64,000 nucleotides of DNA from an uncultured bacterium (GCA_966243015.1 CBIMES010000001.1:214837-278836); one strand, 5' to 3'; counted from the stretch's first letter, positions 10,142 through 61,707 are shown. Program-made: numbers and translations. Notes: generated from the letters alone by a model not told the origin.

Positions 10142-10165
10142 GGTGTATAAACCTTGATAGATGAA

Positions 10166-10209: not shown

Positions 10210-10235
10210 GGACCCATCTAACTCACATCAACACC

Positions 10236-12998: not shown

Positions 12999-13717
12999 TG
13001 CGTTATACTATTTCCATGAACGACATCATTCCCGCAATCCTTCCCAAGTCATACGCAGAGCTCGAGGACAAGCTCGGCTTGATAGCCTCGCACGCGCCCC
13101 TCGTGCAGATCGATATCTGCGATGGCGCGTACACGCAGTCGCGCACATGGCCGTACCTCAAGGGCGACTTTGACCAGATCTTCCAGGACATCATCGAGCA
13201 GAACCAGGCGCTTCCGGGCTGGGAGGAGATCGACTTCGAATTCGACCTCATGGTCAAGAATGCCCACGAGAAGATCCCTGATTTCATCTCAGCCGGCGCC
13301 TCGCGCATTGTCGTCCACAAGGACAGCCTGTCCGCGGACGAGCTCGAGGGCGTCGTAAGCGACTTCGGCAGGAAGTCGGAGGAACTGGGGCCCTTTGACA
13401 TCGAGCTGGGCGTCGCCCTCTCGAGCTCCGCGTCCGCGGGTGACATCGCCCCGCTTGTCGACAGGATTCACTTCGTCCAGGTCATGGGCATTGCGCAGGC
13501 GGGTTTCCAGGGCCAGCCGTTTGACCCTCGTGCGGTTGAGCTCGTGGCAGCCCTTCGCTCGGCATACCCCGATCTCCCGATATCGGTTGACGGGGGAGTG
13601 AATCTCGAGACCGCCAGGACTCTCCTTGATGCGGGTGCGGACCGCCTGGTCGTTGGTTCGGCACTTTTCAATGCGCCGAGTCTTATCGACGCGCTCGAGG
13701 GATTCCGATCCCTCTAG
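12998..13717 (+). CDS. rpe: ribulose-phosphate 3-epimerase-like TIM-barrel protein
   Basis: 239 aa with the Rpe-family pattern (…VQIDICDG…IVVH…FVQVMGIAQAGFQGQ…ISVDGGVN…LVVGSALF). Lies in a pentose-phosphate cluster with rpiB and tkt. Start overlaps the pilin stop. Confidence 0.75.
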   Translation: MRYTISMNDIIPAILPKSYAELEDKLGLIASHAPLVQIDICDGAYTQSRTWPYLKGDFDQIFQDIIEQNQALPGWEEIDFEFDLMVKNAHEKIPDFISAGASRIVVHKDSLSADELEGVVSDFGRKSEELGPFDIELGVALSSSASAGDIAPLVDRIHFVQVMGIAQAGFQGQPFDPRAVELVAALRSAYPDLPISVDGGVNLETARTLLDAGADRLVVGSALFNAPSLIDALEGFRSL

Positions 13718-13750
13718 AGTATCCGCGGCGCCATCTCGTCGTGGTAGAAT

Positions 13751-14617
13751 ATGCACATCACATCTATGGCCCTTTCAACCAAAAAAGTTCAGGAGCTCGA
13801 GCTTCAGGCGAACCAGATTCGCCAGTCCATCATCGAGATGCTGCTCGAGGCGGGCTCGGGTCACACCGCGGGACCGCTCGGCATGGCGGACATCTTCACG
13901 ACGCTCTATTTTTACACCCTCAATCATCGTCCCAAGGATCCGTCATGGGAAGGAAGGGACCGACTCGTTCTCTCGAATGGCCACATCTGCCCGGTGCTCT
14001 ACGCGACCATGGCTCACGCGGGATATTTTCCCGTTGAAGAGCTCAAGACCCTTCGCAAGTTCGGCTCGCGCCTTCAGGGGCATCCGCATCGCGAGTATCT
14101 GCCCATGCTCGAGACCTCGTCGGGTCCACTCGGCTCAGGCCTCTCTCAGGCCGTGGGTATGGCACTCGCCGATCGCATCGACAGCGGCAAGGCGTCGTCC
14201 CGCCGCATCTACTGCCTGACCTCCGATGGAGAGCATGACGAGGGTAATACATGGGAGGCGATTATGCTCGCGGGCAAGGAACGCCTCGGCAATCTCGTCT
14301 GCGTCATCGATCGCAACAATATTCAGATCGACGGTAACACGGAGGACATCATGCCTCTCGAGCCGTTCGTGAACAAGTACATCACCTTCGGTTGGCACGT
14401 CATCGAGATCGACGGCCACAACATGGAGGAGATTGCCGACGCCTTCGAGAAGGCTAAGGCCATTTTCGACAAGCCCGTCTGCATCATGGCCCACACAATT
14501 CCCGGCAAAGGCGTCGCTGAGTTTGAGAGGAAGTACGAGTGGCACGGCAAGCCGCCGAACAAGGAGGAGGCGGCGATGGCTTTGGCTGAACTTAAGGCGG
14601 CCGCGAAGAATATATAA
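13751..14617 (+). CDS. transketolase, N-terminal (thiamine-diphosphate-binding) subunit of a split transketolase
   Basis: Contains …AGSGHTAGPLGMADI… and GDG-type TPP-binding (…CLTSDGEHDEGNTWEA…). About 288 aa, which is subunit size. The ATG at 13766 (MALSTKK) is an alternative start, because the first ATG directly abuts an extended -10 (TGGTAGAAT). Confidence 0.9.
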   Translation: MHITSMALSTKKVQELELQANQIRQSIIEMLLEAGSGHTAGPLGMADIFTTLYFYTLNHRPKDPSWEGRDRLVLSNGHICPVLYATMAHAGYFPVEELKTLRKFGSRLQGHPHREYLPMLETSSGPLGSGLSQAVGMALADRIDSGKASSRRIYCLTSDGEHDEGNTWEAIMLAGKERLGNLVCVIDRNNIQIDGNTEDIMPLEPFVNKYITFGWHVIEIDGHNMEEIADAFEKAKAIFDKPVCIMAHTIPGKGVAEFERKYEWHGKPPNKEEAAMALAELKAAAKNI

Positions 14618-20014: not shown

Positions 20015-20134
20015 GGTGTGCCCATTGTATGTCATCAAGCGGACGTCAAGGAAGGGTAAAGGGAGGATAAAACTGGGGAGGGCATGTGGATAATTAATTT
20101 GATGCGGAAAAGCCGTGTTAATATCTACTATGAT

Positions 20135-25657: not shown

Positions 25658-25717
25658 TACATTTAGTTGCGGGAGCGCGGGTTGTGTATCGCGCAAACCT
25701 GCGCTAGGGTAGGGTCT

Positions 25718-27151
25718 ATGAAAAAGACCTTGATTGTGGCCCTGGCTATCCTTGCCCTGGCGCCATATGCCGCCGAGGCGGCGTGGTGGAACCCATTTGG
25801 TTGGGGTAAAAGCCCTCGCCCCGCCGTGGTTTCGGACAACGCGGATCAGGCGGCGACCTCGAGCGAGTCCACTGACGGCCTCTCTGTCTTGCCGACAACT
25901 GACGAGCTCTACAGGAGAATCGCCGAGCTCGAGGGAAAAATTGACGTTCTTCGCGCCCAGCTCGCCGAGGCAAGGGAAGGGAAATCAACGCCCGCCCCGG
26001 TCGTGGCTGTCGTCGATGTCGAGGCGGACAGCCCGCGTGACCTTTCCGCGAACGGCAAGGCGTCGGTTGTCCTCGTCGAGGGTCCGAAGGGTACCTCCGC
26101 GGGATCCGTCATTGATGCCAAGGGATTTATCGTCACTACCTCAAAGATATTGGGAACGTCGACGTCGGCGACGGTTGTCCTCTCGAGCGGCGCAAAGAGG
26201 CAGGCTCATCTGATTGGGCTTGAGGTGGCGAACAACGTGGCCGTCCTTCAGCTCTCTGACGCCAAGGCGTCATCTTATGCCTCGTACAGGACGGGTGCGC
26301 TACCTTCCGTTGGCGATACCTTGTACATGGTTGGATTCAATGTTGGAGGTGTTTCGGCAAGTGCGATTCCTGCCGTCGTCGCCCAGAACTCGGCGTCGTC
26401 GTTCCAGGTGACGGTCGAGTCAAAGCCTTTCGACACAAGCGTTCTCGTGACCTCAAATGGCTCTCTCGTGGCAATTCCATCGTCGTCGAGCTGTAAGGTG
26501 CTCGAGGAGGGGAGGACCTGTCTCAAGTACGCCGTTTCGGCGACGGTGTCATCCTCGCGCATACCACTTCTCGCGCAAGGCCTGAGGCTTTACGGCCCCT
26601 CGAAAGTCCCGACAAAGGAGGAGGAGGCCTTTCGCGGCTACATCGAATCACTCTATCGTGCGGTGACTGATGCCACTTCAGTTACGTCGGCCATCGACGC
26701 CGTGAGTGGAAAAAACTCTTTCGACTTCCTGAACGGCAGGCTCGCCGACGACGAGAACGGCAAGATCGCCAGACTCTACGCAACCAAGCTCAAGAACGCC
26801 GCTGACAGCCTTTCCCGCGCTTACGACTCGCTCAGGTCCGCGTCGTACACGTTCCGCACGGGGCTCATCAATGACAGCGCTCTTACCATCTATCTCAATG
26901 GCTATCAGAGGAAGACCATCCAGGCGCTTCAGGCAGAAAACGACGCGCGCCTCAAGAAGTATCAGGAGCAAATGGATTTCTGGACCAGGAAGAAGAACGA
27001 GTACGACTCGTACATCTCGGCGCCTGACAAAGCGACGCATGACCTGCTTATGACCGAAGGCGTCTTTGTCGAGAGTGGCGCGGGCACCCTCTCGAAGGAG
27101 AGGCAGAGGATTCTCGAAAGCCTGTCGAGCGACGTAAGGGGACAGTTCTAG
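25718..27151 (+). CDS. secreted protein with a degenerate trypsin-like (S1C/HtrA-type) fold lacking the catalytic His/Asp, plus a C-terminal coiled-coil region
   Basis: Signal peptide MKKTLIVALAILALAPYAAEA. The region GSVIDAKGFIVTTSKIL…ATVVLSSGAKRQAHLIGLEVANNVAVLQLSD…VGDTLYMVGFNVG parallels the DegP core (GSGFII…TNAHVV…DIALLKI…), but His is replaced by Ser and Asp by Asn. Confidence 0.55.
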   Translation: MKKTLIVALAILALAPYAAEAAWWNPFGWGKSPRPAVVSDNADQAATSSESTDGLSVLPTTDELYRRIAELEGKIDVLRAQLAEAREGKSTPAPVVAVVDVEADSPRDLSANGKASVVLVEGPKGTSAGSVIDAKGFIVTTSKILGTSTSATVVLSSGAKRQAHLIGLEVANNVAVLQLSDAKASSYASYRTGALPSVGDTLYMVGFNVGGVSASAIPAVVAQNSASSFQVTVESKPFDTSVLVTSNGSLVAIPSSSSCKVLEEGRTCLKYAVSATVSSSRIPLLAQGLRLYGPSKVPTKEEEAFRGYIESLYRAVTDATSVTSAIDAVSGKNSFDFLNGRLADDENGKIARLYATKLKNAADSLSRAYDSLRSASYTFRTGLINDSALTIYLNGYQRKTIQALQAENDARLKKYQEQMDFWTRKKNEYDSYISAPDKATHDLLMTEGVFVESGAGTLSKERQRILESLSSDVRGQF

Positions 27152-37267: not shown

Positions 37268-38563
37268 CTAGAGGCCTGGCAGGTACGAGAGCGGGTTGAG
37301 ATAGGCCTTCACGTCGGCGATTGGTATGACGACGTCCTTGCATCCCCTGCTGCTGCCGTATTTCTCGACTTTAACTCCCTGGCTCGCCAGGACGGTAAGG
37401 TGAAGGTGCGGTCCGGTCGAGTAGCCTGTGTTGCCGCTGTAGCCGATGCGCTCCCCTGTCTCGACCGTGTCCCCCGCCGACACGCTGATGACGGAGAGGT
37501 GCCCGTAAAGGCTCGAGAGGCCGTTTGGGTGTTTGATGAGGACCCACTTGCCGTACGAGTAGCAGCTCTTGGACAGATCGGTGTTCCCCGTCGCCTGGAC
37601 GGTTCCCGAGAGCACGGACATGACCGGTGTTCCTACGGCAGCGCGGAAGTCGACGCCGTTGTGCGTGCCCGACACGTAGAGGCGCTTTGAGTCGACGGTG
37701 GCACCGAAGTTCTGGGTGATGTAGACGTTCGCGAGCGGCCAGTCGAAGACTCCTGCGCGGGCACTTGGCACCGATGATGGGTCGATGACCAGCTTGAGTT
37801 GGGACTCGTACTCGAAGAGCTCCTTCTCGAAGGCTTCCTTCTCCTTGAGCTTCTGGCTGAGCTGTGCCTGGTACGCGGCGGCGCTGTTCTGGGTCGAGGT
37901 GAGAAGCTTGCTCTGCTCGGTCTTGCTGTACTCGACGGCCTGCTTCTGGCCCGAGAGGTTCTTCTGGAGGGTCACGAGGTTCGCCCTCTCCTTCTCGGCG
38001 CTCGACTTTTGGATGGTGAGGCTCTGGCGCAGGTCGCGGAGGTCGGCGAGGCTTCGGGTGACGCGGGCGTGGACGGAGCGAATGCCGTTCACGTAGTCCC
38101 AGGCCTCGGAGAGGGTTCGCTGATTGAGGAGTTCCTGCACGGCGCTCTGGTCCTCGGCCATTTGCATGTTGCGGATTCCCTGGGCCACGGCCTTGGCCGA
38201 GTTCTCTATCCTGCCCTCGGTTTCATCAATGTCGCCGGCGAGCTCGGTCAAAGTGAGTGAGGTTTTGGTGATCTTCGCCGTGGTGAGGGAGAGGTCCTTT
38301 TCGAGCTTGCTGCGGGTCAGCTCGAGGGATGCCAGGGCGTTCTTGAGGGTCTGGGCCTGTTTCGAGGTCGCGTCGAGGTTGGTGCTGAGGGCCGCGATTT
38401 CCTTTTCGAGGGCCTCTATGCGAGAGTTCGTGTCGGAAATCTGGTCGCGGAGGCTGTCCGCCGACTGCGCGTGCGTGGCTCTGGGCGCAAGTACAAACAT
38501 GCCGACCAGGACGAGGCCGGAGACGAGGGCGGCCAGGCTTGTGGTCTTATGAGTTGAGGGCAT
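37268..38563 (-). CDS. M23 family metallopeptidase (LytM/EnvC-like murein endopeptidase) with an N-terminal coiled-coil region
   Basis: Signal peptide at the internal Met (MPSTHKTTSLAALVSGLVLVGMFVLA). Coiled-coil heptads follow. The C-terminal M23 signature is …HNGVDFRAAVGTPV…GHLS…GNTGYSTGPHLHL…. Overlaps gltX by 17 nt. Confidence 0.8.
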   Translation of the reverse strand: MPSTHKTTSLAALVSGLVLVGMFVLAPRATHAQSADSLRDQISDTNSRIEALEKEIAALSTNLDATSKQAQTLKNALASLELTRSKLEKDLSLTTAKITKTSLTLTELAGDIDETEGRIENSAKAVAQGIRNMQMAEDQSAVQELLNQRTLSEAWDYVNGIRSVHARVTRSLADLRDLRQSLTIQKSSAEKERANLVTLQKNLSGQKQAVEYSKTEQSKLLTSTQNSAAAYQAQLSQKLKEKEAFEKELFEYESQLKLVIDPSSVPSARAGVFDWPLANVYITQNFGATVDSKRLYVSGTHNGVDFRAAVGTPVMSVLSGTVQATGNTDLSKSCYSYGKWVLIKHPNGLSSLYGHLSVISVSAGDTVETGERIGYSGNTGYSTGPHLHLTVLASQGVKVEKYGSSRGCKDVVIPIADVKAYLNPLSYLPGL

Positions 38564-40130
38564 GATCAGCGCATTTCTTGAGCGCCGCGTCGATTCGCCT
38601 GAGTACGGTCTCTTTGCCCAGAATTGCGGAGAGGGTGAACGGATTCGGCGACTTGTCCTTGCCCGACAGTGAGTAGCGAAGGGGCCACAGGACTGCTCCC
38701 CTGCCGTTCGCGTCCGCATAGGGCCAGACGGCGGCCTTGATGCCCTCCTCGGTCCAGTCCCCTGCCCTGACGCCCTCGATGACGCCGCGGACGTGCGTGA
38801 GGTGCTTCACGGTGTTCGAGAGGTCCGGCTCGTCCTTCCATTTGAGCGACAGCGCGTCGTAGTTTGGCTCGCTGAAATAGTAGTCGAGGTCCCGCTCGAG
38901 AATCATCTCGTCGATGTCGGAATACACCTCGATGCGATCGAGGATGACGGGCGCGATTGCCTTTACGGCTTCGTCGGTCACCTTCCAGCCGAGGTCCTTT
39001 GCCCGCTCGTTTGATTCGATGCGGTCCTTGATGGTCGCCTCGAGCTCGGCTCGCGGCAGGAGCTTGATGTGCTCCTTGTTCATCCAGCGGAGCTTCTCCT
39101 CGTTGAAGACGCCTCCCGCCTTGTGGATCTTCGAGATCTCGAACTCCTTCACGAGGCCTTCCTTGGTGAAGACCTCCTGCTCGGTGCCGGGATTCCAGCC
39201 GATGAGGGCGAGGAAGTTAACCATCGCTGACGAGAGGTATCCCTCCTTGCGGTACTCGAGGATATCCTTTGCGCCGTCTCGCTTGCCAAGCTTCTTGGTC
39301 TTGTCGCTGCGGAGAATCGGCGGAAGGGTTACGAGAACAGGAGGCTTGATGCCGAGAGCCTCGTAGAGGGCGAGGAACTTCGGGGTCGACGAGATGAACT
39401 CGTCGGCGCGCATGATGTGCGTCACGCCCATGAGGAGGTCGTCGATGATGTGCGCGAAGTTGTAGGTTGGGTAGCCGTCCTTCTTGATGAGAATGAAGTC
39501 GTCGAGAGCCTCCTCGCCCGCCTCGAGTCGCCCGCGTACCTCGTCCTTCCAGACGGATCGTCGCGGCGTACCTGAGTTAAAGCGGAGCGCCTGCGTACCG
39601 TCCCACTTCCCAAAGGTCTTTGGGCGATGGCGTCGGAAGAGGAAGGGCTTCTTGGCCGCCTCTGCCTGCGCGCGGAAGGCCGCGATCTCTTCGGTGGTGT
39701 ATGGGTCAGGATATGCGAGACCCTTGTCGACGAGCTCCTGCGCGTACTTGCGATAGGTGTCGAGTCGCTCGGACTGAATGCACGAGCCGAAAGGATTCTG
39801 CCTGTCCGGGCCGTAGTCCCAATTAATATCGAGCCATTTGAGTGTCTCCTGAATGTGCTCGATCGAGCCCTCGACCTCTCGCTCGGTATCGGTGTCCTCG
39901 ATGCGGAGGATGAAGGTGCCGCCGTGCTTGCGGGCCCAGAGATGCGCGAAGAGCGCGGTGCGTGCGCTGCCGATATGCATAAAGCCCGTCGGCGACGGCG
40001 CGAAGCGGGTCACCACGCCTGCGCGGTCGGCAGGAATACCCGAAAGGCTTTCGCTCGATGGTACTGACGGTTTTTTGCCGGTTTTGGTCGAAGGTTTCCT
40101 TGAAAAGAAGGCCTTGATGCGGGAAATCAT
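38547..40130 (-). CDS. gltX: glutamate--tRNA ligase with an ~40-aa N-terminal extension
   Basis: …VVTRFAPSPTGFMHIGSARTALF… (HIGH region) and …KKLGKRDGA… (KMSKS-like) with the GluRS catalytic-domain pattern. Confidence 0.9.
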   Translation of the reverse strand: MISRIKAFFSRKPSTKTGKKPSVPSSESLSGIPADRAGVVTRFAPSPTGFMHIGSARTALFAHLWARKHGGTFILRIEDTDTEREVEGSIEHIQETLKWLDINWDYGPDRQNPFGSCIQSERLDTYRKYAQELVDKGLAYPDPYTTEEIAAFRAQAEAAKKPFLFRRHRPKTFGKWDGTQALRFNSGTPRRSVWKDEVRGRLEAGEEALDDFILIKKDGYPTYNFAHIIDDLLMGVTHIMRADEFISSTPKFLALYEALGIKPPVLVTLPPILRSDKTKKLGKRDGAKDILEYRKEGYLSSAMVNFLALIGWNPGTEQEVFTKEGLVKEFEISKIHKAGGVFNEEKLRWMNKEHIKLLPRAELEATIKDRIESNERAKDLGWKVTDEAVKAIAPVILDRIEVYSDIDEMILERDLDYYFSEPNYDALSLKWKDEPDLSNTVKHLTHVRGVIEGVRAGDWTEEGIKAAVWPYADANGRGAVLWPLRYSLSGKDKSPNPFTLSAILGKETVLRRIDAALKKCADHALNS

Positions 40131-49491: not shown

Positions 49492-50787
49492 TTACGGATT
49501 AAGCCTCTTCACGTCCCTCGGGAGGTAGGTTGCCTCGCGGACGTTCGGGAGGTCGAGCATCTTCATGATGAGACGTCCCGGTCCGATGCCCGCTCCGCCG
49601 TGCGGAGGGCAGCCGTACCTGAAGAAGTTGATGTAGTCCTTGAGCGACTCGAGCGACATGCCCTTGTCGAGGGCCTGCTTCTCGAGGATCTCGACGCGAT
49701 GCTCTCGCTGGGCGAGGGTCGTGACCTCGATGCCTCGGTAGATGAGGTCTGCTCGCTTCGAGCGGTCGTTGTCGTTCTCGTGGCGCATGTGGTAGAAGGC
49801 GCTCTTCGACTTGTGGTAGTCGGTGATGAATACGAAATCGTGATTGTGCTTCTCCTTCACGTACTCCGAGATGGCTCGCTCCTCCTCGGGCGAGAGGTCA
49901 TGATCCTCTCCCGATGCAATTCCCCTCTCGGCGAGGATCTTCTTTGCCTCGACAATCGGGATGCGTGGGAACGGCTGTGCCGGAACCTCGATGTTGAGGG
50001 TCGGGAACGCCTCCTTTACGGCCGCGAAGCCTGCGACGATCATGCCCTCCTCGGCATCCATGATGTCGTGGTGAGACTCGATGTAGCTGATTTCGAAGTC
50101 CCAGCCGGTGAACTCGGTGAGGTGTCGGGTGGTGTATGACTCCTCGGCTCGGAAGACGGGGCCGACCATGAAGGCCTTCTCGAAGCCCGACGCCATGGCC
50201 ATCTGCTTGTAGAACTGTGGCGACTGCGCGAGGTACGCCTTGCGGTCGAAGTAGTCTACGGCGAACACCTCGGCGCCCGTCTCTGACGGTGTCGACATGA
50301 ACGACGGCGAGTAGATCTGCATGTAGCCGTTCTTGTACCAGTAGTCGCGGAAGCCCTTCTCGAGCGCGGTCCAGACCTTGAAGATCTGCGCCTTCTCGGG
50401 CTTGCGGAGGTCGATCCAGCGGAAGTCGAAGCGGGTCGGCGCCTCGGTCTCCTCGCCGCCCTTGAGGGTGACGACAGGGATGGCGAGCTCGGGAGCCGCC
50501 TTCGAGAGAACCTCGATGCCCGTGATGTCCATCTCGGCTCCGCCCGGCGCCTGCGCAGCCGCCTTGACGGTTCCGGTTACCTCGACGACTGACTCGGTCG
50601 AGAGACCCTTCACGGTCTCGAAGGTCGGGCTGTCCTTCATGACGACGATTTGCACGAGGCCCTCGATGTCGCGGAGGACGAGGAAGGCGATTTTTGACTG
50701 AACGCGGAGCGCGTGCACGAAGCCGCGAACCATGACGGTCTCGCCGACGTGATCCTTGACCTTGCTGGTGTGTACGAATGCTTTCAT
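49492..50787 (-). CDS. aspS: aspartate--tRNA ligase, archaeal/eukaryotic type (class IIb; possibly non-discriminating Asp/Asn-RS)
   Basis: N-terminal OB fold, class II motifs (…FRAEESYTTRHLTEF…, …GGAGIGPGRLIM…). The internal Met (MKAF…) is taken as the start because the upstream 36 codons of the ORF-track ORF are the T-box terminator region. Confidence 0.85.
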   Translation of the reverse strand: MKAFVHTSKVKDHVGETVMVRGFVHALRVQSKIAFLVLRDIEGLVQIVVMKDSPTFETVKGLSTESVVEVTGTVKAAAQAPGGAEMDITGIEVLSKAAPELAIPVVTLKGGEETEAPTRFDFRWIDLRKPEKAQIFKVWTALEKGFRDYWYKNGYMQIYSPSFMSTPSETGAEVFAVDYFDRKAYLAQSPQFYKQMAMASGFEKAFMVGPVFRAEESYTTRHLTEFTGWDFEISYIESHHDIMDAEEGMIVAGFAAVKEAFPTLNIEVPAQPFPRIPIVEAKKILAERGIASGEDHDLSPEEERAISEYVKEKHNHDFVFITDYHKSKSAFYHMRHENDNDRSKRADLIYRGIEVTTLAQREHRVEILEKQALDKGMSLESLKDYINFFRYGCPPHGGAGIGPGRLIMKMLDLPNVREATYLPRDVKRLNP

Positions 50788-50789
50788 TG

Positions 50790-51180
50790 TGTTTGTAAAA
50801 ACGTTAATAAGGTTAATCGATGCGGGGTTGCCTGTATAAAACAAAAGCGCCCCTTCGAATACATCGCGTGGATACATTCGCAGGGGCGATTTCATCGCGG
50901 TGCCACCCTGTGTTCAGGCTGGCCTCAGGTTGCCCTGGGGCCAGCCTCTTTTGGTTTAGTCGTAATCGGACGACATCCGGGGGATTCTACTTGCCTCGGG
51001 CTGATTTGAGGCCCACGGAGGCTTTCCTTCCCCTACCTCGCCGGTGTCAGCCGGGTCAGTGGTATGCGAGTACTTTAGCTGATTTTCAGGGTTTGGGCAA
51101 ACTTTCTATCCTGACCAGCATAAGGGTTCTGATAGCTTGGCCTTCGGGCTCCAAGGCCCCGTTTTCGCGGGGTTTCGCTT
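50790..51180 (-). promoter_or_regulatory. T-box riboswitch leader regulating aspS
   Basis: The minus strand carries the T-box consensus AGGGUGGCACCGCG (~50896-50909). It is immediately followed by an 18-bp terminator helix (CGCCCCUGCGAAUGUAUC/GAUGUAUUCGAAGGGGCG) plus CUUUUGUUUU, about 50 nt before the aspS ATG. A ~270-nt structured region with a UUCG-capped helix lies upstream. Confidence 0.7.
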
Positions 51181-51924: not shown

Positions 51925-53064
51925 TTAAGGTGTGTTTGTTGAGGGAAAGCAAGAGTCAGCCGTCCTATTTCCCCATGAATCAACGTCAGTTTGATACTGT
52001 TTGAGGTGTATTCCTTCCATCTTCACATACGTTAGGGGACCGTTTGACGATGAACCGCCTCCGTCATACCTTACTCCAAAATGAAGGTGGACGCCTTGCG
52101 CGTCACCCGTGTCACCCATATAGCCGATAAGATCACCTTGGGCAATTGAGCTCCCTTGGGTCAGACCGGATGAATATTTAAGGTGTAGGTATCGAGTGGT
52201 GTATCCAGTTGTTTCGCTGTTGACTCCGCTATGGTTAATCACGACATAATTACCGTTTGCCGAACTCGTATCAACCTTCGCGACGATTCCGCTCGCCACG
52301 GCCCGTATTGGTATATCCCCAGAATAGGAGGGGTTACTTGAGGGGCCGAAGTCAATTGCGAAATAATTCGACCCGATATGTGATCCAAGTTGTTGTCCCG
52401 GATATTTTGCATCCCAACCTCCAATTTCAGTGGTCACCACCCAGCTTCTCCTTCCCGGCAGTGGAAGCTTGAGGCTCGGCGGCGTGACGGTCTCAGTATA
52501 TTGCAGATACAAATATGGCCGATACGCTTTGGAGGTTACGTCTGAGCTGTGGAGGCCATGGACTTGGTTAACCGTTCCCGTTGGAACAAAGAACAGTCCG
52601 CCGTTCGTGATGCTCCCTGATTTCCACTGGCCGTAGAGTGAGGTCATCCCGATTCCATTGAACGCGCCGGTCGTAGGCGCACCAATGTTTCCGAGGTTGT
52701 ATCCGCTCCATGCCGTGTTGTTCCAGGTCGACGTTTCGTCCCAGTTGTTCACCAGTGCGTAGAGTGTCGAGCCCGTCGGCGTGTATCCCGATCCAGCCGA
52801 ATACGCCCAAACATACAATCCGACGAATGAGGGACTCGCTGGCAGCCCCTCCAGGTCGAGCTTTAGGGCCGAGCAGTAGAGATTCGAGTCCTCGCCTATT
52901 CTGAGCTCCGATGCGTTGCTGGCGGTATTCGGAGTGTCTGGTGACACCGTGACGTCAGTTCCCCGGTAAGGGGAGGGTTGATAGGTTAGCGTTGCCGCCG
53001 TGACTACAGAGGAAAAGACGGCTGCCGCGAGGCAGGCCATTCTTGATGCGATTCCGACTTTCAT
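51925..53064 (-). CDS. secreted M23 family metallopeptidase with an N-terminal carbohydrate-binding-like (DNRLRE/CBM96-like) domain
   Basis: Signal peptide. The N-terminal region (LYCSALKLDLEGLP…WDETSTWNN) is recognised at the pattern level only. The C-terminal M23 signature is …NYFAIDFG…GNYVVINHSG…GYMGDTGDAQGVHLHFGV. An AAGGAT Shine-Dalgarno lies upstream. Confidence 0.75.
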   Translation of the reverse strand: MKVGIASRMACLAAAVFSSVVTAATLTYQPSPYRGTDVTVSPDTPNTASNASELRIGEDSNLYCSALKLDLEGLPASPSFVGLYVWAYSAGSGYTPTGSTLYALVNNWDETSTWNNTAWSGYNLGNIGAPTTGAFNGIGMTSLYGQWKSGSITNGGLFFVPTGTVNQVHGLHSSDVTSKAYRPYLYLQYTETVTPPSLKLPLPGRRSWVVTTEIGGWDAKYPGQQLGSHIGSNYFAIDFGPSSNPSYSGDIPIRAVASGIVAKVDTSSANGNYVVINHSGVNSETTGYTTRYLHLKYSSGLTQGSSIAQGDLIGYMGDTGDAQGVHLHFGVRYDGGGSSSNGPLTYVKMEGIHLKQYQTDVDSWGNRTADSCFPSTNTP

Positions 53065-54678: not shown

Positions 54679-54763
54679 GACAAAAGAGTATCAGAGTTCA
54701 CGGCAATAAAAAAGAGCGCCGCTTTGACGGCGCTCTCGCTCTAACTTCGCGTGAAGGGTGTGC

Positions 54764-56215
54764 CTAGACGACGGTTTCGCCCTGATCCCGGAGGGCTGAC
54801 CAGTATCCCGGCTTTATCTTTCGGGGACCATAGCTCTCTCTGTTGAGGATTGCCACGTGGTACCCCTTCTCCATGCGCATGATGTCCTCGACGCGTCTCG
54901 CCTTATCGGGATAGGCCTCGCTCCAGGGCATTTCCTTGCCACCCACGGACACGTTCCAGTTTCCCGTCTTGCTCTTTGTGGCCGAGGGCCAGGCGTAGAT
55001 GAGGCCACAGAGCCTCGCGTTGCCCATCGTCGACAGGCGCACGTGGCACTGGGCTTCCTCGAGGGTCCTGAAGAAGTGAGTCTCTCCGTTTGCGCTGTGG
55101 TGAAACAGCCCGTCACGGAATCCCGTCTCTTCCTCAACCTTGTCCCAGATGATGTTGTCGATACCCCTTTCGCCGAAGAAGTCCTCGGGCGATATGTGGC
55201 CTCGATCCATCATGATCTTGATGAGTCGAACCGCCAGCATATACTCCACGTGCCGTGTCTGGCGGTGGTAGTAGAGGAGCTTGAACAGAAGGGCTCTTGC
55301 CAGAAGGAACTTGTGCAGGGCCTCGTGGTTGTCGATAACAATCGTATCGTTCTTCCCTCGCCTGACTGATTCCCAGACGCAGAATGCGTTTGGGTTGTCG
55401 GCGATGAAGACCAGCTCCTGCTCGAGAAGACGGTCGGATTCCTCTTCGTAGAACGAATAGTCCTTGGCGTGATACCCGTAGAGCATATGGAGGTCTCGCG
55501 ACACATACGCCACGGTGTCAGCAAGGTCTCGGATCGAGCACAGGATTCCGTCCTTCTCTTGGTCGATGCGGATTGGTTCCCGTGGGTCGATCCCGACTTC
55601 CGAGCACAGGTGTGTCCAGCGCTCGTCTTCGAGAAGCCTCGAGAGCATCTCGTCCTCGTCATATCTCTTCCTGTCGACGAACTTCATGAGGTCGCCACAG
55701 GCCGAGGTGAACATGTCGTGAACGAGAAGGCCCAGGCGCAATGCCATGAAGTCCCTGCCCTTTACGCCCAGATTGTGGGCGATGATCATACCGATTGCAT
55801 ACACGTCGTAGGTGTGCAGCAGTCGGTTGTGGTCAAACCCGAACGAGCTCTGACTGTGACCCTCGTCCTGTCTGACTGCGGGCGAGAGGAGGGCAAGCTG
55901 CCGAATCTCTCGAAGCCTTATCAGGCCCAGGACCCAGCCAAGCTGGTGCGCCAGGCCATTTACCGACTCAAACCAGGCTATGCCGCCGCTGTAGGGTATC
56001 CAGCATCTGCCGAGAACCGAATCGTCGTCGGTCACGTAGGCGCTTGGGCTTGAGTCGAGGGCGAAATCGCCCAAAGCGACTGCCCGTCTTTGAATGAGGG
56101 TGCGGGTGATCCGCTCCTCGGGACCGACGTCTTTGCCGATTCCGTTCCTGCGAATGGCCGCCTCTGCGTTTAGAAGGTCGGCGCGTGAGAATCTGTCATC
56201 TATGTTGGTGTTCAT
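54764..56215 (-). CDS. HD-domain metal-dependent phosphohydrolase family protein (483 aa)
   Basis: H…HD signature (…FDHNRLLHTYDVYAIGMIIAHNLG…LVHDMFTSACGD…). Internal Met start (MNTNIDDRF…). Confidence 0.65.
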   Translation of the reverse strand: MNTNIDDRFSRADLLNAEAAIRRNGIGKDVGPEERITRTLIQRRAVALGDFALDSSPSAYVTDDDSVLGRCWIPYSGGIAWFESVNGLAHQLGWVLGLIRLREIRQLALLSPAVRQDEGHSQSSFGFDHNRLLHTYDVYAIGMIIAHNLGVKGRDFMALRLGLLVHDMFTSACGDLMKFVDRKRYDEDEMLSRLLEDERWTHLCSEVGIDPREPIRIDQEKDGILCSIRDLADTVAYVSRDLHMLYGYHAKDYSFYEEESDRLLEQELVFIADNPNAFCVWESVRRGKNDTIVIDNHEALHKFLLARALLFKLLYYHRQTRHVEYMLAVRLIKIMMDRGHISPEDFFGERGIDNIIWDKVEEETGFRDGLFHHSANGETHFFRTLEEAQCHVRLSTMGNARLCGLIYAWPSATKSKTGNWNVSVGGKEMPWSEAYPDKARRVEDIMRMEKGYHVAILNRESYGPRKIKPGYWSALRDQGETVV

Positions 56216-56259
56216 TCTGAACACCAGACTACTTATTGCATAGTAAAAGTCAATTCTGG

Positions 56260-56655
56260 TCAATGCTTCCCCGCCACCCTAAAATTCACGTACAAATTCA
56301 TGAGGTAATTCCAGACGCCGACCGCGGCGGCGACGAGGATTCTCGACGGCACGTAATGCCAGTCGAGCACTGATACGAAGACTGCCATAAGCCCCGTGAC
56401 GGCAGTGAGCCCGACGCCTGTTATGAGGAGGTAGATCGCGTAGCCGTGATGAACGGGACGCTGGCTTCCTTTGAAGATGAGCGATCGGCTGAGGGCGTAG
56501 TTGATTGTTACCGCAACCAGGAAGGCTACTCCTGCCGAGAATATTGGGTTCCAGTGAAGGAGCTCGGTGAAAAGAGACAGCAGAAGAAGGTCGAAGGCGA
56601 AGGTTCCGACGCCTATGGCTGAGTACGACATAAACCTTCGAACTCCCTTTCGCAT
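56260..56655 (-). CDS. GtrA-family membrane protein (polysaccharide/glycolipid synthesis-associated)
   Basis: 131 aa with 4 TM helices and the GtrA-like pattern (…RFMSYSAIGVGTFAFDLLLLSLFTELL…NYALSRSLIF…). Overlaps the HD gene by 4 nt. Confidence 0.7.
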   Translation of the reverse strand: MRKGVRRFMSYSAIGVGTFAFDLLLLSLFTELLHWNPIFSAGVAFLVAVTINYALSRSLIFKGSQRPVHHGYAIYLLITGVGLTAVTGLMAVFVSVLDWHYVPSRILVAAAVGVWNYLMNLYVNFRVAGKH

Positions 56656-56667: not shown

Positions 56668-59600
56668 TTATCGCCCTATCGTCGCGCGCGTCTTCGGGCC
56701 AAAGTATCCGATGGATGGGGTGATGCCCTTTGACACCTGATACCCAGAAAGCGCCGACTGGGTCGCCAGGCCAAAGTAGAGAGTCTCGAGGCCGGGCGAT
56801 CCCGCGCCGGAGAGGGACACGACGAATCCCCTTTCGTTAAGATATCGCTGAAGAAGGAGCACGCAGTCACCCTTTGAGCCGAGGGTCATGTTTGGGCAGG
56901 ATGCCAAGCCCTCTGTCTCCTGACTCTCGTCAGACACAGGCTTATCTTCACCAAGCAGAACCGAGATAAGGCGCTGAAGAGTCCCTTGGTCAGCGTTCAC
57001 TGTCGCTTGATTTTGTCTCGCCTGTTGCCCTAGGGCGGCAAGATTGGACGCCCTTCGAGCTGCAGAGGTTCCAGAATGAGGAATCGGTCTCTGATTTTCC
57101 TCCTGCTGCGGCGCGGGTGCCGTCGTCACTGACGTGGTATCGGACGGGTCTGACTCACCCATGGCGTTAAACGCCCTGACGTAATATGAGTACTCGGTGC
57201 CGTTGGATAGGCCCGTAATCACGGCCGTTGACGATGACGTCGTGGCCACGAGTGCGTCCGTTCCCGTTTGATACACGCGGTAACCGAGTATCGTGGAGCT
57301 TCCGTTCTGCAAAGGGGTGTCCCACGACAGGCTCGCCGTCAGATCATCGAGCGAAATCTGCGGATTCAAAGGAGCCGATGGAACGGTGATAGAGAGTATT
57401 GCGTCCTCGAGAAGGCTGGCGACACGGTCGTTTCCCGCACCGTTCGGATGAAGGCCGTCAGTGGTTGTGTACCCACTTATAGTGCCCAAGTCTATAAGAT
57501 AAGTCTTGTCCGATGGATTCGACTCCATGTAAGCGTTGAATCCGGACGTTATGTTCGCACGACCCGTGCCGTTGAAGGGTACGTTGAGGTAGATGGCCGT
57601 AGACGTTGATACGGCTGATCGAAGGGAAGTTAGCCAGTTGGTAACCGTCGAGGCGGCAGAGACTCCCCCGTTGGTTCCCATGTTGATGAAAACCATGTCT
57701 GGGTTCGGCAGTATCTTTCCGTCGGTCAGCCTTGACCTTCCCGCCGAGTATAGGCTCCATGCGCTCACGAGTCCGGGAACGTTAGTCAGTCCGCCGCTCG
57801 TCCAGCCCTGCCCGCCGACGGCGGTGTTTCCGAACTCCGCGTCGAGAGCCTCGGCAAGTTGGGTGATATATACGCGTGTGCTGTTGGCGATAAGGGCGCC
57901 AACTCCCGATTGTCCCGTGTTGCCGCTCGAGGTCTGGTCCACCCACTGGCCCTCCGCTATGGAGTCTCCGTAGACGAGCATTCTCCTCGAGCGCACAGGG
58001 AAGGCGTTGAGTTCAGAGCCCTCCTCAAGCACAATACCTGTTATTTTGAGCTGCTGGACCGGTGTATTCCAGCTGTCGTAGTACATGTTTCGCTGGTAGT
58101 AGGCCTCTACGGTGTGGTTACCCTCGCTCAGACTCGAGGCCAAGGTCACGACGCTCGAAGTACCTGTGAGCTGGATCGTCTGGTACTCCCCGCCATCGAT
58201 ACGGTATTTAAGCACGGGGTACGCAATGGCGTTCATTGAAGCCGAGACCTGGGAGGAAACGTCAACCTCTAGCCCGAATCGAGGGCCCGTAAAGCCCACT
58301 TTGAAATAAGCGTTCGAGCCGCCCGCGCTGGTCACAAATCCGTCCCCTTTATACCAGACGTAAGGGCTGAGACCTGTTTCAAACGACGCGTCAGTAACGG
58401 GAAGGGTCACGGTCGCGAAGGGTGTCGCCGATACGACGCTTGATGAGGCGGACGCACCTGCGGCATTTGACGCGGTCACATAGTATGAGTATTCAGTACC
58501 GTTTGAGAGGCTCGGTATTGTTACCGAGGTCACAAGCGTTGTGGTCGCGAGTTCGTTCGACGGATACGAATATACCGAGTAGTGAGTTATTGCTGACCCG
58601 CCAGGGCTGGTCGGCGTGCCCCACGACAAAGCTATTTGCCCGTCACCAGGCGTCGCTGTGGGATTGAGAGGCTCTGAGGGGACCGTGGTAGAAGATGTCG
58701 CTGGGTCAAAAAGTGTTCCCACGCCGCCAATATCGAATTGCATTCCCAAAGGCGATGTTCCCCCGGAAGTCGTGAATCCTCCGATTCCCACGAGTCCACC
58801 GGCCTGGCTGTCGGTTCCCGTGGCTACCGCCATTCTCAGCGTGCTGTCAAAAGACCTTGTGTCTAGATTGAGCCACATGCCCGTAGACACGCGCTTTACG
58901 TACATTGAGTAGTTCGAGCCCGTCACTCCCACGACGATATAGTACTCGCCCGCGGGGAAAGAGAACCCTGTCGTCGCGCTGCTCGATGAGGTTATATAGG
59001 TTGAGCTCGAAAACGGTGTGTACGCCCTTCTCAATCCAACCGATCCCCTCCCTATGTCCACCTCGGCCCATATTCCGCTCGTGCCGGCCGGGTTGGTGCG
59101 AACGATCGGCGAAATGTAGTTGTTGAAGCCAACCGCTGAAGTCGTATCGATGAGCAATCCCACTTCCGTGTCTGATCCCGCGTTTGTCGAATTGTAATAG
59201 CGCAAAGCGCCACCAGTTCCCTGCCGAAGGCTCGATGACGTGGCGAAGAGCGTGTACTCCTGAGCGGTCAATGATTTCGTCCACGAGCTACCGTTCTCGG
59301 CCTGGTGGCTTTGGAGAAGGAACGGGGAACTTTCACTCACGCCCCTTGTGAATTTATCGATGACAATTGGCTCTGTGCTAGAGCGAGGCATCGCCAGAAC
59401 AGGACTCGATGACGCCGATTCTCCAACTGAATTCGTCGCGGTGACGTAGTATGAATAATAAATGCCGTTAGTCAGCCCCGTGAGGCTGATCGACGCGCTG
59501 GTGCTGCTTGCGATGAATGAGTTAGTTGAGCTGCTGTATACAGAGTAATGGGTTATCGTTGATCCCCCGTCTGAAATCGGTGCAAGCCACGAAAGCACCA

Positions 59601-60396
59601 CCTGTCCGTCGCCCGGTGTCGCGACGAGGGAACGAGGACGGGTGCTTGCGGAAAGGAGGGGGTCGGTGAGGGATCCAAGGTCACCAAGATCAATCTGTTT
59701 CGTGAGTGGCGATCCGGTCGAGGTAAAGCCTCCGATTCCTATAAGGTTTCCCGACTGCGTGTCGGTTGCGGAAACCACAGCGATTCGCGACGAACTGTCG
59801 AAGAGTTTGTTTGAGGGATTAAGCCACATGCCCGTCGAAATCTGCTTGACGTACATGTGGTAGGTTGATGAGCTTGCGCCGACAACCACGTAGTAGTCAG
59901 ATGAGGGAAAGGAAAAACCCGTGCTAGTACTCGTGTTGCTTATGTAGTTGAAAGGAGAGTACGCCTGTCGAAGCCGCACCGTGCCGGCCGAGAAATCAAG
60001 CTCGGCCCATATTCCGCTCGTGCCGGCCGAGTTGGTGCGAACGATCGGCGAAATGTAGTTGTTGGATCCGGTCGCCCCGTTTTTGTTCAGCAAAACACCT
60101 ACTTCGATGTCGTTGCTGACGGTCGTGCTGTTATAGTATCTCACCACGCCAGACCCCGACTGCGTGAGGCTCGTGCTGCTGGCGCTCAGTCGATAGTCGG
60201 CGGAACCCGTCGATTTGGTCCAAACCCCTCCGTTGTCAGCTTGGTGACCCTGCAAAGGAAAAGGGGTCGTCTCATTCTCCTGCCTTGTAAATCTATCGAA
60301 GACCACGGTTGAGGCGTGGACCGATGAGCCCGCAAGGAAAAAAGACGAGGATACGAAAAGCGCGGAAAATAGAAATCGTAGCTTGGGTCGATTCAT
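56668..60396 (-). CDS. giant secreted multidomain protein (1242 aa): two ~250-aa duplicated modules each followed by a fibronectin type III domain, an SGNH/GDSL-hydrolase-like domain, a third FN3, and a C-terminal PG_binding_1-like domain
   Basis: Signal peptide MNRPKLRFLFSALFVSSSFFLAGSSVHA. FN3 consensus (…LSWxxPxSxGGSxITHYxVY…NGxxYxYYVxAxNxxGxS) occurs three times. The GDSL block is MLVYGDSIAEGQ and the block V is DGLHPNGAGNDRVA. The C-terminal …CVLLLQRYLNERGF…YFGLATQSALSGYQVSKGI… is PG-binding. Confidence 0.75.
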   Translation of the reverse strand: MNRPKLRFLFSALFVSSSFFLAGSSVHASTVVFDRFTRQENETTPFPLQGHQADNGGVWTKSTGSADYRLSASSTSLTQSGSGVVRYYNSTTVSNDIEVGVLLNKNGATGSNNYISPIVRTNSAGTSGIWAELDFSAGTVRLRQAYSPFNYISNTSTSTGFSFPSSDYYVVVGASSSTYHMYVKQISTGMWLNPSNKLFDSSSRIAVVSATDTQSGNLIGIGGFTSTGSPLTKQIDLGDLGSLTDPLLSASTRPRSLVATPGDGQVVLSWLAPISDGGSTITHYSVYSSSTNSFIASSTSASISLTGLTNGIYYSYYVTATNSVGESASSSPVLAMPRSSTEPIVIDKFTRGVSESSPFLLQSHQAENGSSWTKSLTAQEYTLFATSSSLRQGTGGALRYYNSTNAGSDTEVGLLIDTTSAVGFNNYISPIVRTNPAGTSGIWAEVDIGRGSVGLRRAYTPFSSSTYITSSSSATTGFSFPAGEYYIVVGVTGSNYSMYVKRVSTGMWLNLDTRSFDSTLRMAVATGTDSQAGGLVGIGGFTTSGGTSPLGMQFDIGGVGTLFDPATSSTTVPSEPLNPTATPGDGQIALSWGTPTSPGGSAITHYSVYSYPSNELATTTLVTSVTIPSLSNGTEYSYYVTASNAAGASASSSVVSATPFATVTLPVTDASFETGLSPYVWYKGDGFVTSAGGSNAYFKVGFTGPRFGLEVDVSSQVSASMNAIAYPVLKYRIDGGEYQTIQLTGTSSVVTLASSLSEGNHTVEAYYQRNMYYDSWNTPVQQLKITGIVLEEGSELNAFPVRSRRMLVYGDSIAEGQWVDQTSSGNTGQSGVGALIANSTRVYITQLAEALDAEFGNTAVGGQGWTSGGLTNVPGLVSAWSLYSAGRSRLTDGKILPNPDMVFINMGTNGGVSAASTVTNWLTSLRSAVSTSTAIYLNVPFNGTGRANITSGFNAYMESNPSDKTYLIDLGTISGYTTTDGLHPNGAGNDRVASLLEDAILSITVPSAPLNPQISLDDLTASLSWDTPLQNGSSTILGYRVYQTGTDALVATTSSSTAVITGLSNGTEYSYYVRAFNAMGESDPSDTTSVTTAPAPQQEENQRPIPHSGTSAARRASNLAALGQQARQNQATVNADQGTLQRLISVLLGEDKPVSDESQETEGLASCPNMTLGSKGDCVLLLQRYLNERGFVVSLSGAGSPGLETLYFGLATQSALSGYQVSKGITPSIGYFGPKTRATIGR

Positions 60397-60462
60397 GCAC
60401 GTCTAGTATACCAGAAAGTGTCGTTGGTTTTCTTCGACAGAGTGCCATCGTCGCTCGAAACG

Positions 60463-61617
60463 TCAGGCTCGCGGCGCCTGCTTCGCGGTCACGCTCTCGT
60501 AGAGCCTGAGAAGCTTCCGCGCGATGACCTTGCTCCTGAAGCAGCGGGCGGTCTTTCTCGCCTCATCAGACATTCTCTCTCTCGCGGATCGGTCGCCCAT
60601 GAGCGCGCGTATCTTTTCCTCGGCCTCGCCCTGTGACGACACGACAAACCCGTTTTCGCCGTTCCGTATCGCCTCTGGGGCGACTCCTACGGAGTACACA
60701 ACGGGCACGAGCCCCTGGGACATGGCCTCGATCAGGCTGAGCGAAAAGCCCTCATACCGCGAAGGTATAAAAACGATCGACCCCCTAAGAGACCTGAGCA
60801 GGTTCGGTATCTCGTCCTTCTTTGCGTTTACGTGAATGAGGTGGTTTGGCAGCCGCCTCGTCATCCAGTCCACGAGTTTGCTGTTCGTGGTCATGCAGAT
60901 CGTTACCTTCGGCGCTTCGGGAAATTTCTCGTATATGTCCACCAAGCGATCGCACCCCTTGAGCTTGAGGGTAAAGGCGTCTGAGCCGAGCCTTCCGAGA
61001 AACACGAGCGACGGGTTTTCGACAAAGGCGCCCGGCCTACCCTCGAACCAATAGTCCTCGATGGCATTGTGTATCAGGTGTATTTTGTCTGGGCTCACGC
61101 CCGACGCCGTCAGCTCCGCTCGCACGTTCTCTGAGGTTGCTATGACCGCCTCGGCGCGGCTCGCGACAAAGGTCTCTATCTCAGCAATGTCTCTGAGGGG
61201 CTTTCTGGTGCGTATATTGAGCTCTCGTATCGCGCCCTCTTTCTTGAGTCGGTACCAGACCTGTCTGGGGCCGTCCTCCTCGATTCGCGTCGCGAGGGGC
61301 ACCCTGCTCAGAAATCCCTGTGTCGTCGAGCCGAAATGAGTGACCACGGGAATCTTTTCCTCGAGGAACGGCAGCGGCGTATAGGTCGTGCCCTGAATCA
61401 TGTCGAACTTGCTAATCTGACGCTTTTTCTCGAGAAGCGAGTGGAAGAAGAGGATGTTCTTTATACCCGAGAGTCTCGTGGGCGTGTCGAGCGACATCTC
61501 AGGGTAGAAGTTTTTGGTTTCGACATTCGCCTCCCTCAGTTTGAGGGACATGAGATCGTTTATGTAATGGGCTCCCGTGCCGAGTTTCTTCTCGTTGTGA
61601 ATGAATGCTACTTTCAT
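60463..61617 (-). CDS. glycosyltransferase family 4
   Basis: Internal Met MKVAFIHNEKKLGTGAHY… and the C-terminal …RYEGFSLSLIEAMSQGLVPVV… (GT4 EX7E region). Confidence 0.75.
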   Translation of the reverse strand: MKVAFIHNEKKLGTGAHYINDLMSLKLREANVETKNFYPEMSLDTPTRLSGIKNILFFHSLLEKKRQISKFDMIQGTTYTPLPFLEEKIPVVTHFGSTTQGFLSRVPLATRIEEDGPRQVWYRLKKEGAIRELNIRTRKPLRDIAEIETFVASRAEAVIATSENVRAELTASGVSPDKIHLIHNAIEDYWFEGRPGAFVENPSLVFLGRLGSDAFTLKLKGCDRLVDIYEKFPEAPKVTICMTTNSKLVDWMTRRLPNHLIHVNAKKDEIPNLLRSLRGSIVFIPSRYEGFSLSLIEAMSQGLVPVVYSVGVAPEAIRNGENGFVVSSQGEAEEKIRALMGDRSARERMSDEARKTARCFRSKVIARKLLRLYESVTAKQAPRA

Positions 61618-61688
61618 GAGCACTTTCTGTATTGTGCGCCGTGACAGGAGGTCGCGCGCGTTAGCTGGCAATGGAACCATACTCGCAG

Positions 61689-61707
61689 ATATTGACATGA
61701 TGTCAAT
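61689..61707. promoter_or_regulatory. perfect 9-1-9 palindrome TATTGACATgATGTCAATA (candidate operator containing TTGACA on both strands) in the intergenic region upstream of the GT4 gene
   Basis: Exact inverted repeat. It lies between the stop of the gene at 61732..62445 and the GT4 start. Coordinates approximate. Confidence 0.4.

Follow-up and report, generated by a model that had tools for sequence, protein, structure and literature searches.

Which polysaccharide would an esterase act upon that a cell mounts on its own wall, and does this polysaccharide belong to the cell itself or to another? The question is raised by a gene within a stretch of 64,000 nucleotides (nt) from an uncultured bacterium (GCA_966243015.1 CBIMES010000001.1:214837-278836, here called the window): an open reading frame (ORF) at 56668-60396 on the minus strand, which starts with ATG and encodes a product of 1242 amino acids (aa) followed by a stop codon. 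From its N- to its C-terminus the protein comprises a signal peptide, two copies of a module of approximately 222 aa each followed by an FN3 domain, a β-jelly-roll domain and an SGNH catalytic domain that together form an esterase unit of the CE2 type, a third FN3 domain, a linker and a PG_binding_1 domain. An earlier note made from the DNA had already recognised a signal peptide, an SGNH esterase, three FN3 domains and a C-terminus resembling PG_binding_1, a description with which the domain searches agree. The reading that we favour, tentatively, is that of a wall-tethered, lectin-guided polysaccharide O-acetylesterase whose target lies outside the cell, on the surface of a partner or host or in the surroundings.

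The window is chromosomal, encoding DnaB, four aminoacyl-tRNA synthetases (AspRS, TrpRS, CysRS and GluRS), MurG, FtsW, a D,D-carboxypeptidase, GAPDH and a transketolase subunit. Since its DnaB shares 83–88% identity with proteins named Candidatus Paceibacterota and 77–78% with entries of the Patescibacteria group and Taylorbacteria, we take the organism to be a member of the Paceibacteria class of the Patescibacteria (candidate phyla radiation, CPR). Patescibacteria are mostly uncultured, and little is known about how they recognise and attach to their partners; suspicion usually falls on large surface proteins that carry adhesion-type or peptidoglycan-binding domains (PMC13059738, PMC10936435). 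The 1242-aa protein is a concrete candidate with separable parts: an enzyme with the biochemically well understood CE2 fold, a putative anchor to the wall and a pair of lectin modules of rare sequence. The kind of enzyme is already known; what is new is the architecture around the CE2-type unit.

The identical protein is recorded on five contigs, the longest of 493,814 nt, so that the 1242-aa ORF is not a one-off product of assembly and an assembly artefact could be ruled out as its origin. A 723-aa version (P0001), from an ENA contig of 5961 nt, is identical up to about aa 695, beyond which it has an unrelated tail rich in Arg and Ser; the cause is probably a frameshift or a misassembly in a separate assembly of this organism.

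The CE2-type esterase unit

The esterase unit begins with a β-jelly-roll domain of the CE2 type (about aa 661-800; 57997-58416, minus strand), assigned by Pfam, NCBIfam and fold comparison, and continues with the SGNH catalytic domain (about aa 801-1003; 57388-57996, minus strand), assigned by a 14-sequence alignment and by profile alignment with CtCE2. The CE2 family is defined by such a bi-domain unit, by an invariant Ser-His pair and by an oxyanion hole built from Ser N, Gly N and Asn (PMC2661963), and the order found here, an N-terminal β-jelly-roll followed by SGNH, is that of the family. The GDSL/SGNH esterase of the earlier note proved to be intact, whereas the β-domain of approximately 140 aa that lies between the second FN3 domain and the SGNH domain had been overlooked. 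In the fold comparison, the unit scored 30.7 against CjCE2C (2waa), 30.3 against Est2A (3u37), 29.0 against CtCE2 (2wao), 26.8 against a fungal CE2 enzyme (4xvh) and 26.7 against CjCE2B (2w9x), with each of these matches spanning 285–312 residues and hence covering both domains.

The alignment of aa 661-1003 with 13 relatives (14 sequences in total) contains all of the Ser, His and Asp residues that an SGNH fold should possess: Ser812 (57961-57963), Asp980 (57457-57459) and His983 (57448-57450), accompanied by Asn909 (57670-57672; all minus strand) as the oxyanion residue. The motifs read VYGDSIAEG (block I), GGQGW (block II, aa 861-865), MGTNGG (block III) and DGLHPN (block V); across the 14 sequences the G-D-S-I..G of block I, the G-x-N of block III (here G-T-N, with Gly907 and Asn909) and the His of block V are invariant, and the Asp of block V is nearly so. 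When compared with CtCE2, the family profile gave an E-value of 1.4e-19 and placed GDSI on the catalytic Ser-612, GTN on the GTND motif with Asn-705 and His983 on His-791; the S612A crystal variant (2wab) reads GDAI at the position of the catalytic Ser. The invariant Ser-His pair of CE2 enzymes is thus represented by Ser812 and His983, and the block II Gly and Asn909 are predicted to complete, with Ser N, an oxyanion hole of Ser N, Gly N and the Asn side chain. The NCBIfam model AxeC2, itself a CE2 enzyme, matched aa 698-865 with an E-value of 4.7e-8, with an equivalog score of 32.3 bits against a required 500: judged by these comparisons, the esterase unit is a remote CE2 clade and not an AxeC2 equivalog. 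Its identity to the characterised family (CjCE2A/B/C, CtCE2 of Cel5C-CE2, Est2A; Montanier et al. 2009, PMC2661963) is just about 20%. Unlike these enzymes, it is placed between FN3 domains, is combined with lectin modules and a peptidoglycan anchor, occurs in a CPR organism that does not degrade plants and belongs to a clade that is largely phage-borne.

The earlier note had suggested a comparison with the Ape and OatA families. Ape1 and OatA/PatB have in common with the present protein the SGNH fold, the Ser/His/Asp residues, an association with the envelope and action on glycan acetyl groups, but the fold scores of 9.6 and 9.3 (Ape1), 9.7 (OatA-C) and 9.0 (PatB), together with the lack of any match to these families in the Pfam and NCBIfam scans, rule out a kinship that extends beyond the generic fold. 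A role as an O-acetyl-peptidoglycan esterase, which like Ape1 would remove the 6-O-acetyl group of N-acetylmuramic acid (MurNAc) from its own or a host's peptidoglycan, appears improbable to us. The PG_binding_1 domain and the intact SGNH catalytic set would suit such an enzyme, and its chemistry would be compatible as well: the groups preferred by CE2 enzymes are 6-O-acetyl groups on hexopyranoses, and C6 of MurNAc is where peptidoglycan is O-acetylated. This substrate had been put forward in the earlier note, and none of our findings specifically supports it.

A different doubt concerns catalysis as such, because the unit could chiefly bind carbohydrate within what is mainly an adhesin, with catalysis being secondary or lost. 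CtCE2 binds cellulose non-catalytically via its Ser-His active site (PMC2661963), the 2waa-like C-terminal domains of phage neck passage proteins have been described as carbohydrate-binding modules (PMC6669499), and the combination of multiple lectin and FN3 domains resembles adhesins noted in Patescibacteria (PMC13059738). Against this, the catalytic and oxyanion residues are kept across the whole clade, phage members included, which argues for retained catalysis; we consider the adhesin reading quite improbable.

Duplicated lectin modules and the 64-nt tract

The N-terminal half of the protein is made up of a tandem duplication (aa 31-319 against aa 344-641: 54% identity over 298 aa, E-value 3e-104). 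Module 1 (aa 29-250; 59647-60312) is followed by FN3 domain 1 (about aa 252-338; 59383-59643), and its paralogue, module 2 (aa 342-569; 58690-59373), by FN3 domain 2 (about aa 570-656; 58429-58689), all on the minus strand. The two modules share 54.9% identity by tblastn and 57% by global alignment, and at nucleotide level the duplicated units are 58% identical overall. Pfam fn3 (PF00041) passed its gathering score with 106.9 bits in three stretches, the best of which is FN3 domain 3 beyond the esterase unit (aa 1007-1090; 57127-57378, minus strand), likewise aligned to titin; domain 1 was further delimited by alignments to titin FN3 domains (aa 253-336) and domain 2 by FN3_DSCAM (aa 621-656) and FN3 structures in the PDB (aa 573-656). 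The duplication and the FN3 domains had been noticed previously; the modules, described then as two diverged units of about 250 aa, measure approximately 222 aa and could now be assigned a fold.

This assignment came from structure. Neither aa 29-250 nor aa 342-569 matched any model in Pfam, NCBIfam or PHROG, such that no existing family model fits, and a profile search of PDB sequences with the lectin module found nothing. When aa 29-250 were searched exhaustively with HMMER against 1.84 billion representatives, only six proteins were returned at an E-value of 1e-3 or better, three of them at 1e-30 or better: a fragment of the protein itself and the homologues P0002 and P0003. A structure model built from a 10-sequence alignment (predicted local distance difference test score of 86.6) is an all-β sandwich, and a Foldseek comparison of this model with BFVD retrieved mainly actinobacteriophage minor tail proteins of the DUF7257 type, one of which is annotated as 'Lipase'. 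The fold is the β-jelly-roll sandwich of the class to which CBM66, Laminin_G_3 and the phage DUF7257-type domains belong; as modelled, the duplicated modules are concanavalin A (ConA)-like lectin domains of the type seen in phage baseplate and minor-tail proteins.

Homologues with the full architecture are few. P0002 (1188 aa) is 53% identical and has the same layout, ending in PG_binding_1, and P0003 (1004 aa) has one module and two FN3 domains and ends in PG_binding_1 as well. Identities between the modules of the 1242-aa protein and those of P0002 form a flat matrix (46–57%), so that positional orthology of the modules could not be upheld; the duplication is either ancient, with concerted evolution, or of independent origin in the two proteins.

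Within the two modules lies a pair of nearly identical tracts of 64 nt, in module 1 at 60001-60064 (codons 112-132, NNYISPIVRTNSAGTSGIWAE) and in module 2 at 59062-59125 (codons 425-445, NNYISPIVRTNPAGTSGIWAE; both minus strand), whose sole mismatch is TCG (Ser123) against CCG (Pro436). The earlier note had reported this identity with positions that were 1–2 nt off and had offered two explanations, gene conversion or strong constraint, between which a comparison of codons decides. At all 20 of the identical residues inside the tract the same codon is used, compared with 60 of 153 (39%) outside it, and the chance of such agreement is about 0.39^20, or roughly 1e-8 per position. Constraint on the protein is real for the residues themselves: the tract corresponds to two β-strands in the core of the jelly-roll (strands 86-93 and 101-106 of the model) and is the best-conserved stretch of the module among homologues, yet constraint alone cannot account for identity at synonymous sites. 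Furthermore, the P0002 gene, which also has two modules, contains no such tract, its best 63-nt window being 78% identical and lying within FN3. Because same-codon usage is far beyond the background and the tract is absent from the P0002 gene, we conclude from the codon comparison that the tract goes back to a short, recent event of gene conversion from one lectin module to the other. A diversity-generating retroelement was ruled out as well: the tract contains 10 A and 16 T and yet just one mismatch in 64 nt, and no plausible reverse-transcriptase motif was found in any long ORF of the window.

Predicted wall anchoring, phage relatives and the likely target of the enzyme

The protein would be exported and retained at the wall. 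Its first 28 residues (60313-60396, minus strand; MNRPKLRFLFSALFVSSSFFLAGSSVHA, with S as the next residue) read, in the translation, as a Sec signal peptide: a basic n-region is followed by a hydrophobic core and by VHA-S, which resembles a cleavage site. At the other end, a low-complexity linker (aa 1091-1165; 56902-57126, minus strand) precedes the PG_binding_1 domain (PF01471; aa 1166-1242, with the Pfam stretch at aa 1177-1239; 56671-56901, minus strand), a predicted non-covalent peptidoglycan anchor that passed its Pfam cut-off narrowly (23.5 bits against 23). Both parts have a counterpart in a protein of 1857 aa encoded at 20084-25657 on the plus strand: the helix-like linker motif LQRLISVLLG aligns with LERLINVLRG in the C-terminal cassette of that protein, whose paralogous domain (25262-25639, plus strand) reaches 37.1 bits with PG_binding_1. 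The two C-termini share 37% identity over 165 aa and approximately 53% (40/75) in the PG-binding core, so that the value of about 50% given in the earlier note holds for the 75-aa core and not for the longer region, and its expectation that the C-terminus would match PG-binding models was borne out, if narrowly. The region of approximately 165 aa looks like a shared wall-anchoring cassette. PF01471 is also present at the C-termini of P0002, P0003, P0056 and a homologue from Saccharibacteria (locus L071). As for the 1857-aa protein, it consists almost entirely of degenerate 'GNATFNGSAYNSGT'-type repeats, with the C-terminal PG_binding_1 as its sole Pfam match, and is directly followed by a Trypsin_2-domain protein (25667-27151, plus strand).

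On the reading that we favour, the PG_binding_1 domain would hold the protein non-covalently on the cell's own peptidoglycan, and the three FN3 domains and the linker would act as spacers that project the remainder outward. The two ConA-like lectin modules at the far end would bind a specific glycan, and the CE2-type unit would hydrolyse the O-acetyl esters of the bound polysaccharide by means of Ser812, His983 and Asp980, with the block II Gly and Asn909 as the oxyanion hole: an acetylated surface polysaccharide would in this manner be recognised and deacetylated on contact. For Paceibacteria, it has been proposed that extracellular proteins which bear peptidoglycan-binding domains and are highly expressed serve in attachment to the host (PMC10936435), and giant proteins with adhesion-type domains have been described from other Patescibacteria (PMC13059738). 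We favour an external target because the set of modules mirrors that of phage tail-fibre and receptor-binding proteins.

Stand-alone proteins of approximately 360–380 aa share 40–42% identity with the esterase unit, and two of them are encoded in phage-like contigs, adjoining tail-fibre, exopolysaccharide (EPS)-depolymerase or tailspike-type genes and other SGNH proteins. A scan of IMG/VR revealed 65 loci that encode the full 343-aa unit at 26–36% identity, usually as the C-terminal half of proteins of 560–1066 aa, some of which also contain two Laminin_G_3 domains (L021) or FN3 and He_PIG (L010); in these two phage proteins the order is the same as here, namely two lectins, Ig/FN3 and esterase. 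PHROG 7918, a 'neck passage structure protein', matches the unit at positions 444-727 of its 735-position profile (E-value 5.8e-17), and some neck passage proteins of lactococcal 936 phages (groups F and G) end in a 2waa-like domain (PMC6669499). More generally, phage tail-fibre, minor-tail and neck-passage proteins (PHROG 7918; mycobacteriophage Douge, TM4 gp23) combine CE2-like or SGNH esterases with ConA-like modules, and the lectin fold of the 1242-aa protein has its nearest matches among the baseplate and receptor-binding domains of phages. A clade of CE2-like esterases in which phage members predominate is thereby documented. One phage-like contig (L004) encodes three SGNH/GDSL proteins within 8 kb (5718-9245, 10001-11113 and 12500-13996), one of them a tail-fibre-like protein of 1175 aa, and among the short CE2-like relatives P0122-P0126 several begin with a signal-peptide-like sequence, which is unusual for virion proteins.

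Should the gene then be regarded as a phage gene? A prophage or phage-remnant tail gene, rather than one for a cellular surface protein, would explain why the nearest relatives of both the esterase unit and the lectin fold are found in phage tail proteins. Unlike these, however, the 1242-aa protein possesses a Sec signal peptide and a C-terminal PG_binding_1 domain and no N-terminal virion-attachment domain; its esterase unit shares just 26–42% identity with phage units, and only this unit fits PHROG 7918, such that the protein does not qualify as a member of the phage tail or neck-passage proteins. The setting is one of housekeeping genes: the neighbours encode a GT4 glycosyltransferase, GtrA, TrpRS, AspRS and an ExoX-like exonuclease, and the GC content across 56668-60396 matches that of its surroundings. 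No phage genes are found nearby and no tRNA or integrase is adjacent; a prophage was rejected on these grounds, and we regard a phage origin of this kind as extremely improbable.

Anchored versions of the enzyme also recur in cellular genomes, the genome-collection scan having used a profile from a seven-sequence esterase alignment. A protein of 1386 aa from Saccharibacteria (L071, CAZUZL010000006.1) comprises two Laminin_G_3 domains, CE2_N, GDSL, MBG_3 and PG_binding_1, with an esterase that is 40% identical, and the metagenomic P0056 (1692 aa) has a 41% identical esterase, other lectin-like modules and PG_binding_1. Both resemble the 1242-aa protein in having two ConA-like modules, a CE2-like esterase (40–41% identity), Ig-like spacers and a C-terminal PG_binding_1 domain; they differ in that their lectin modules are ordinary Laminin_G_3 domains (108.7 bits) as opposed to the rare module found here, in that their spacers are MBG_3, Big_7 or PhoD_N-like and not FN3, and in genomic context. 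Chromosomal versions anchored by PG_binding_1 thus recur in Patescibacteria, Saccharibacteria included. More remote relatives of the lectin module are likewise combined with the esterase: P0131 has the module, then Ig-like repeats and the esterase, and lacks a signal peptide, and in P0128 and P0129 the esterase is preceded by a related domain at the N-terminus, listed as Laminin_G_3 (PF13385) in precomputed Pfam assignments. In a rough, unbootstrapped neighbour-joining tree, the clade of the 1242-aa protein, P0002 and P0003 is sister to a group that mixes the Saccharibacteria protein and P0056 with proteins from phage contigs, and all of these groups fall within a largely viral radiation. The topology is no more than suggestive of module exchange between phages and Patescibacteria; that phage tail proteins and CPR surface proteins alike combine lectin, Ig-like spacer and esterase suggests the same. 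A more far-reaching version, which we consider unlikely, is that the lectin modules and the esterase were taken from, or exchanged with, phage receptor-binding proteins and remounted as a cell-borne 'tail fibre': a host-range determinant by which the episymbiont would first recognise a particular surface polysaccharide of its host, deacetylate it and then attach, with conversion between the modules homogenising or shuffling its binding specificity.

Gene neighbourhood and further features of the window

The gene lies amid a co-oriented group on the minus strand. Upstream, after a gap of 66 nt, is a GT4 glycosyltransferase (60463-61698; Pfam Glycos_transf_1 71.1 bits, and Glyco_transf_4), and downstream, after 12 nt, a GtrA-family membrane protein (56260-56655; Pfam GtrA_DPMS_TM 59.5 bits), which overlaps by 4 nt with the gene of a 499-aa protein (54764-56263). 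The earlier note had named these flanks as GT4, GtrA and an HD-domain protein; the first two are confirmed by Pfam, and the third is unproven, the 499-aa protein giving sub-threshold matches only (HD_3, E-value 0.068; HD_assoc_2, 0.11; dGTPase, 0.087), such that it is possibly, and not established to be, of the HD type. A terminator scan found a terminator-like hairpin with 11 pairs, seven of them G-C, and a T-run at 54712-54737 (minus strand), and no terminator-like site in the 12 nt that separate the esterase gene from GtrA; the hairpin probably ends a transcription unit of the esterase, GtrA and 499-aa genes. Just upstream of the ATG of the esterase gene (60397-60425, minus strand), an extended -10-like box, TGnTATACT, can be read in ...ctTGgTATACTagacgtgcATG, its end lying about 9 nt from the start codon, and no obvious Shine-Dalgarno sequence was seen in this interval; the gene may be transcribed from a promoter of its own, yielding a nearly leaderless mRNA.

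It is this neighbourhood that lends itself to a reading in cis, in which the esterase matures an envelope glycan of its own cell by trimming O-acetyl groups after export, and the GT4 and GtrA proteins help to make the polymer. Were the protein only such a housekeeping deacetylase, it would be an ordinary, though modular, carbohydrate esterase. The four genes share their orientation and close spacing, with a single strong terminator after the last; tethering by PG_binding_1 would put the enzyme beside the cell's own wall polymers; and the window is rich in envelope genes, encoding MurG, FtsW, a D,D-carboxypeptidase, two M23 peptidases and other glycosyltransferases. The GT4/GtrA neighbourhood is, however, not kept at the homologous loci L002, L003 and L071. 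The neighbours at L002 are an unknown gene, DUF3800, a class II aminoacyl-tRNA synthetase (tRNA-synt_2b and HGTP_anticodon) and MreB/MreC, those at L003 are Replic_Relax and primase genes, and those at L071 are PoNi immunity, Mqo-like and DUF2207 genes; a conserved operon of the esterase with GT4 and GtrA was ruled out by these contexts. Moreover, two distal lectins on long FN3 spacers suit an outward reach better than an adjacent wall, and among its relatives the closest are phage proteins, whose targets are foreign cells. We therefore hold maturation of the cell's own glycan to be somewhat unlikely.

Several points nevertheless weigh against a lectin-guided CE2-type esterase with an external target, the reading that we prefer. 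The esterase gene is apparently co-transcribed with GtrA, with GT4 adjoining on the same strand, an arrangement that suits action on an own glycan equally well, and the PG_binding_1 domain could in principle bind the peptidoglycan of a partner cell and not that of its own. In case of the enzyme, both Pfam matches remain just below their cut-offs (CE2_N, aa 694-798, 27.0 bits against 27.9; Lipase_GDSL, aa 810-995, 22.3 bits against 23.6). Block V of the clade, D-G-L-H, is the classical SGNH D-x-x-H, unlike that of CE2 enzymes retaining the Asp, which is D-x-H (D-W-H in CtCE2; PMC2661963). The lectin assignment concerns the fold and not ligand-binding residues, and the episymbiotic lifestyle of the organism is assumed from its phylum.

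A scan of the large ORFs of the window, with three ORFs of at least 300 aa lying outside it, detected no O-acetyltransferase domain, and an Rfam scan of the window yielded no RNA family. The P0056 gene at L003 is flanked by a Replic_Relax protein (287-1282) and a DnaG-like primase/Toprim gene (6481-7509), because of which it may reside on a plasmid-like or mobile element. At L071, the PoNi protein (PoNe-toxin immunity; 1060-1803) is encoded upstream of the Saccharibacteria homologue, which hints at a neighbourhood of inter-bacterial conflict.

The two M23 peptidase proteins of the window are encoded at 51925-53064 and 37268-38719 (both minus strand). The former starts like a signal peptide, and its N-terminal region resembles CBM96 below the threshold (22.3 bits against 26). 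With these peptidases and the esterase, the window seems to be well supplied with putative secreted, envelope-active enzymes. Finally, the AspRS ORF (49492-50895, minus strand) is listed with 467 aa, whilst its cluster relatives, some of which are annotated as non-discriminating aspartyl-tRNA synthetase, measure 431 aa; the true start is therefore probably about 36 codons downstream of the listed one.

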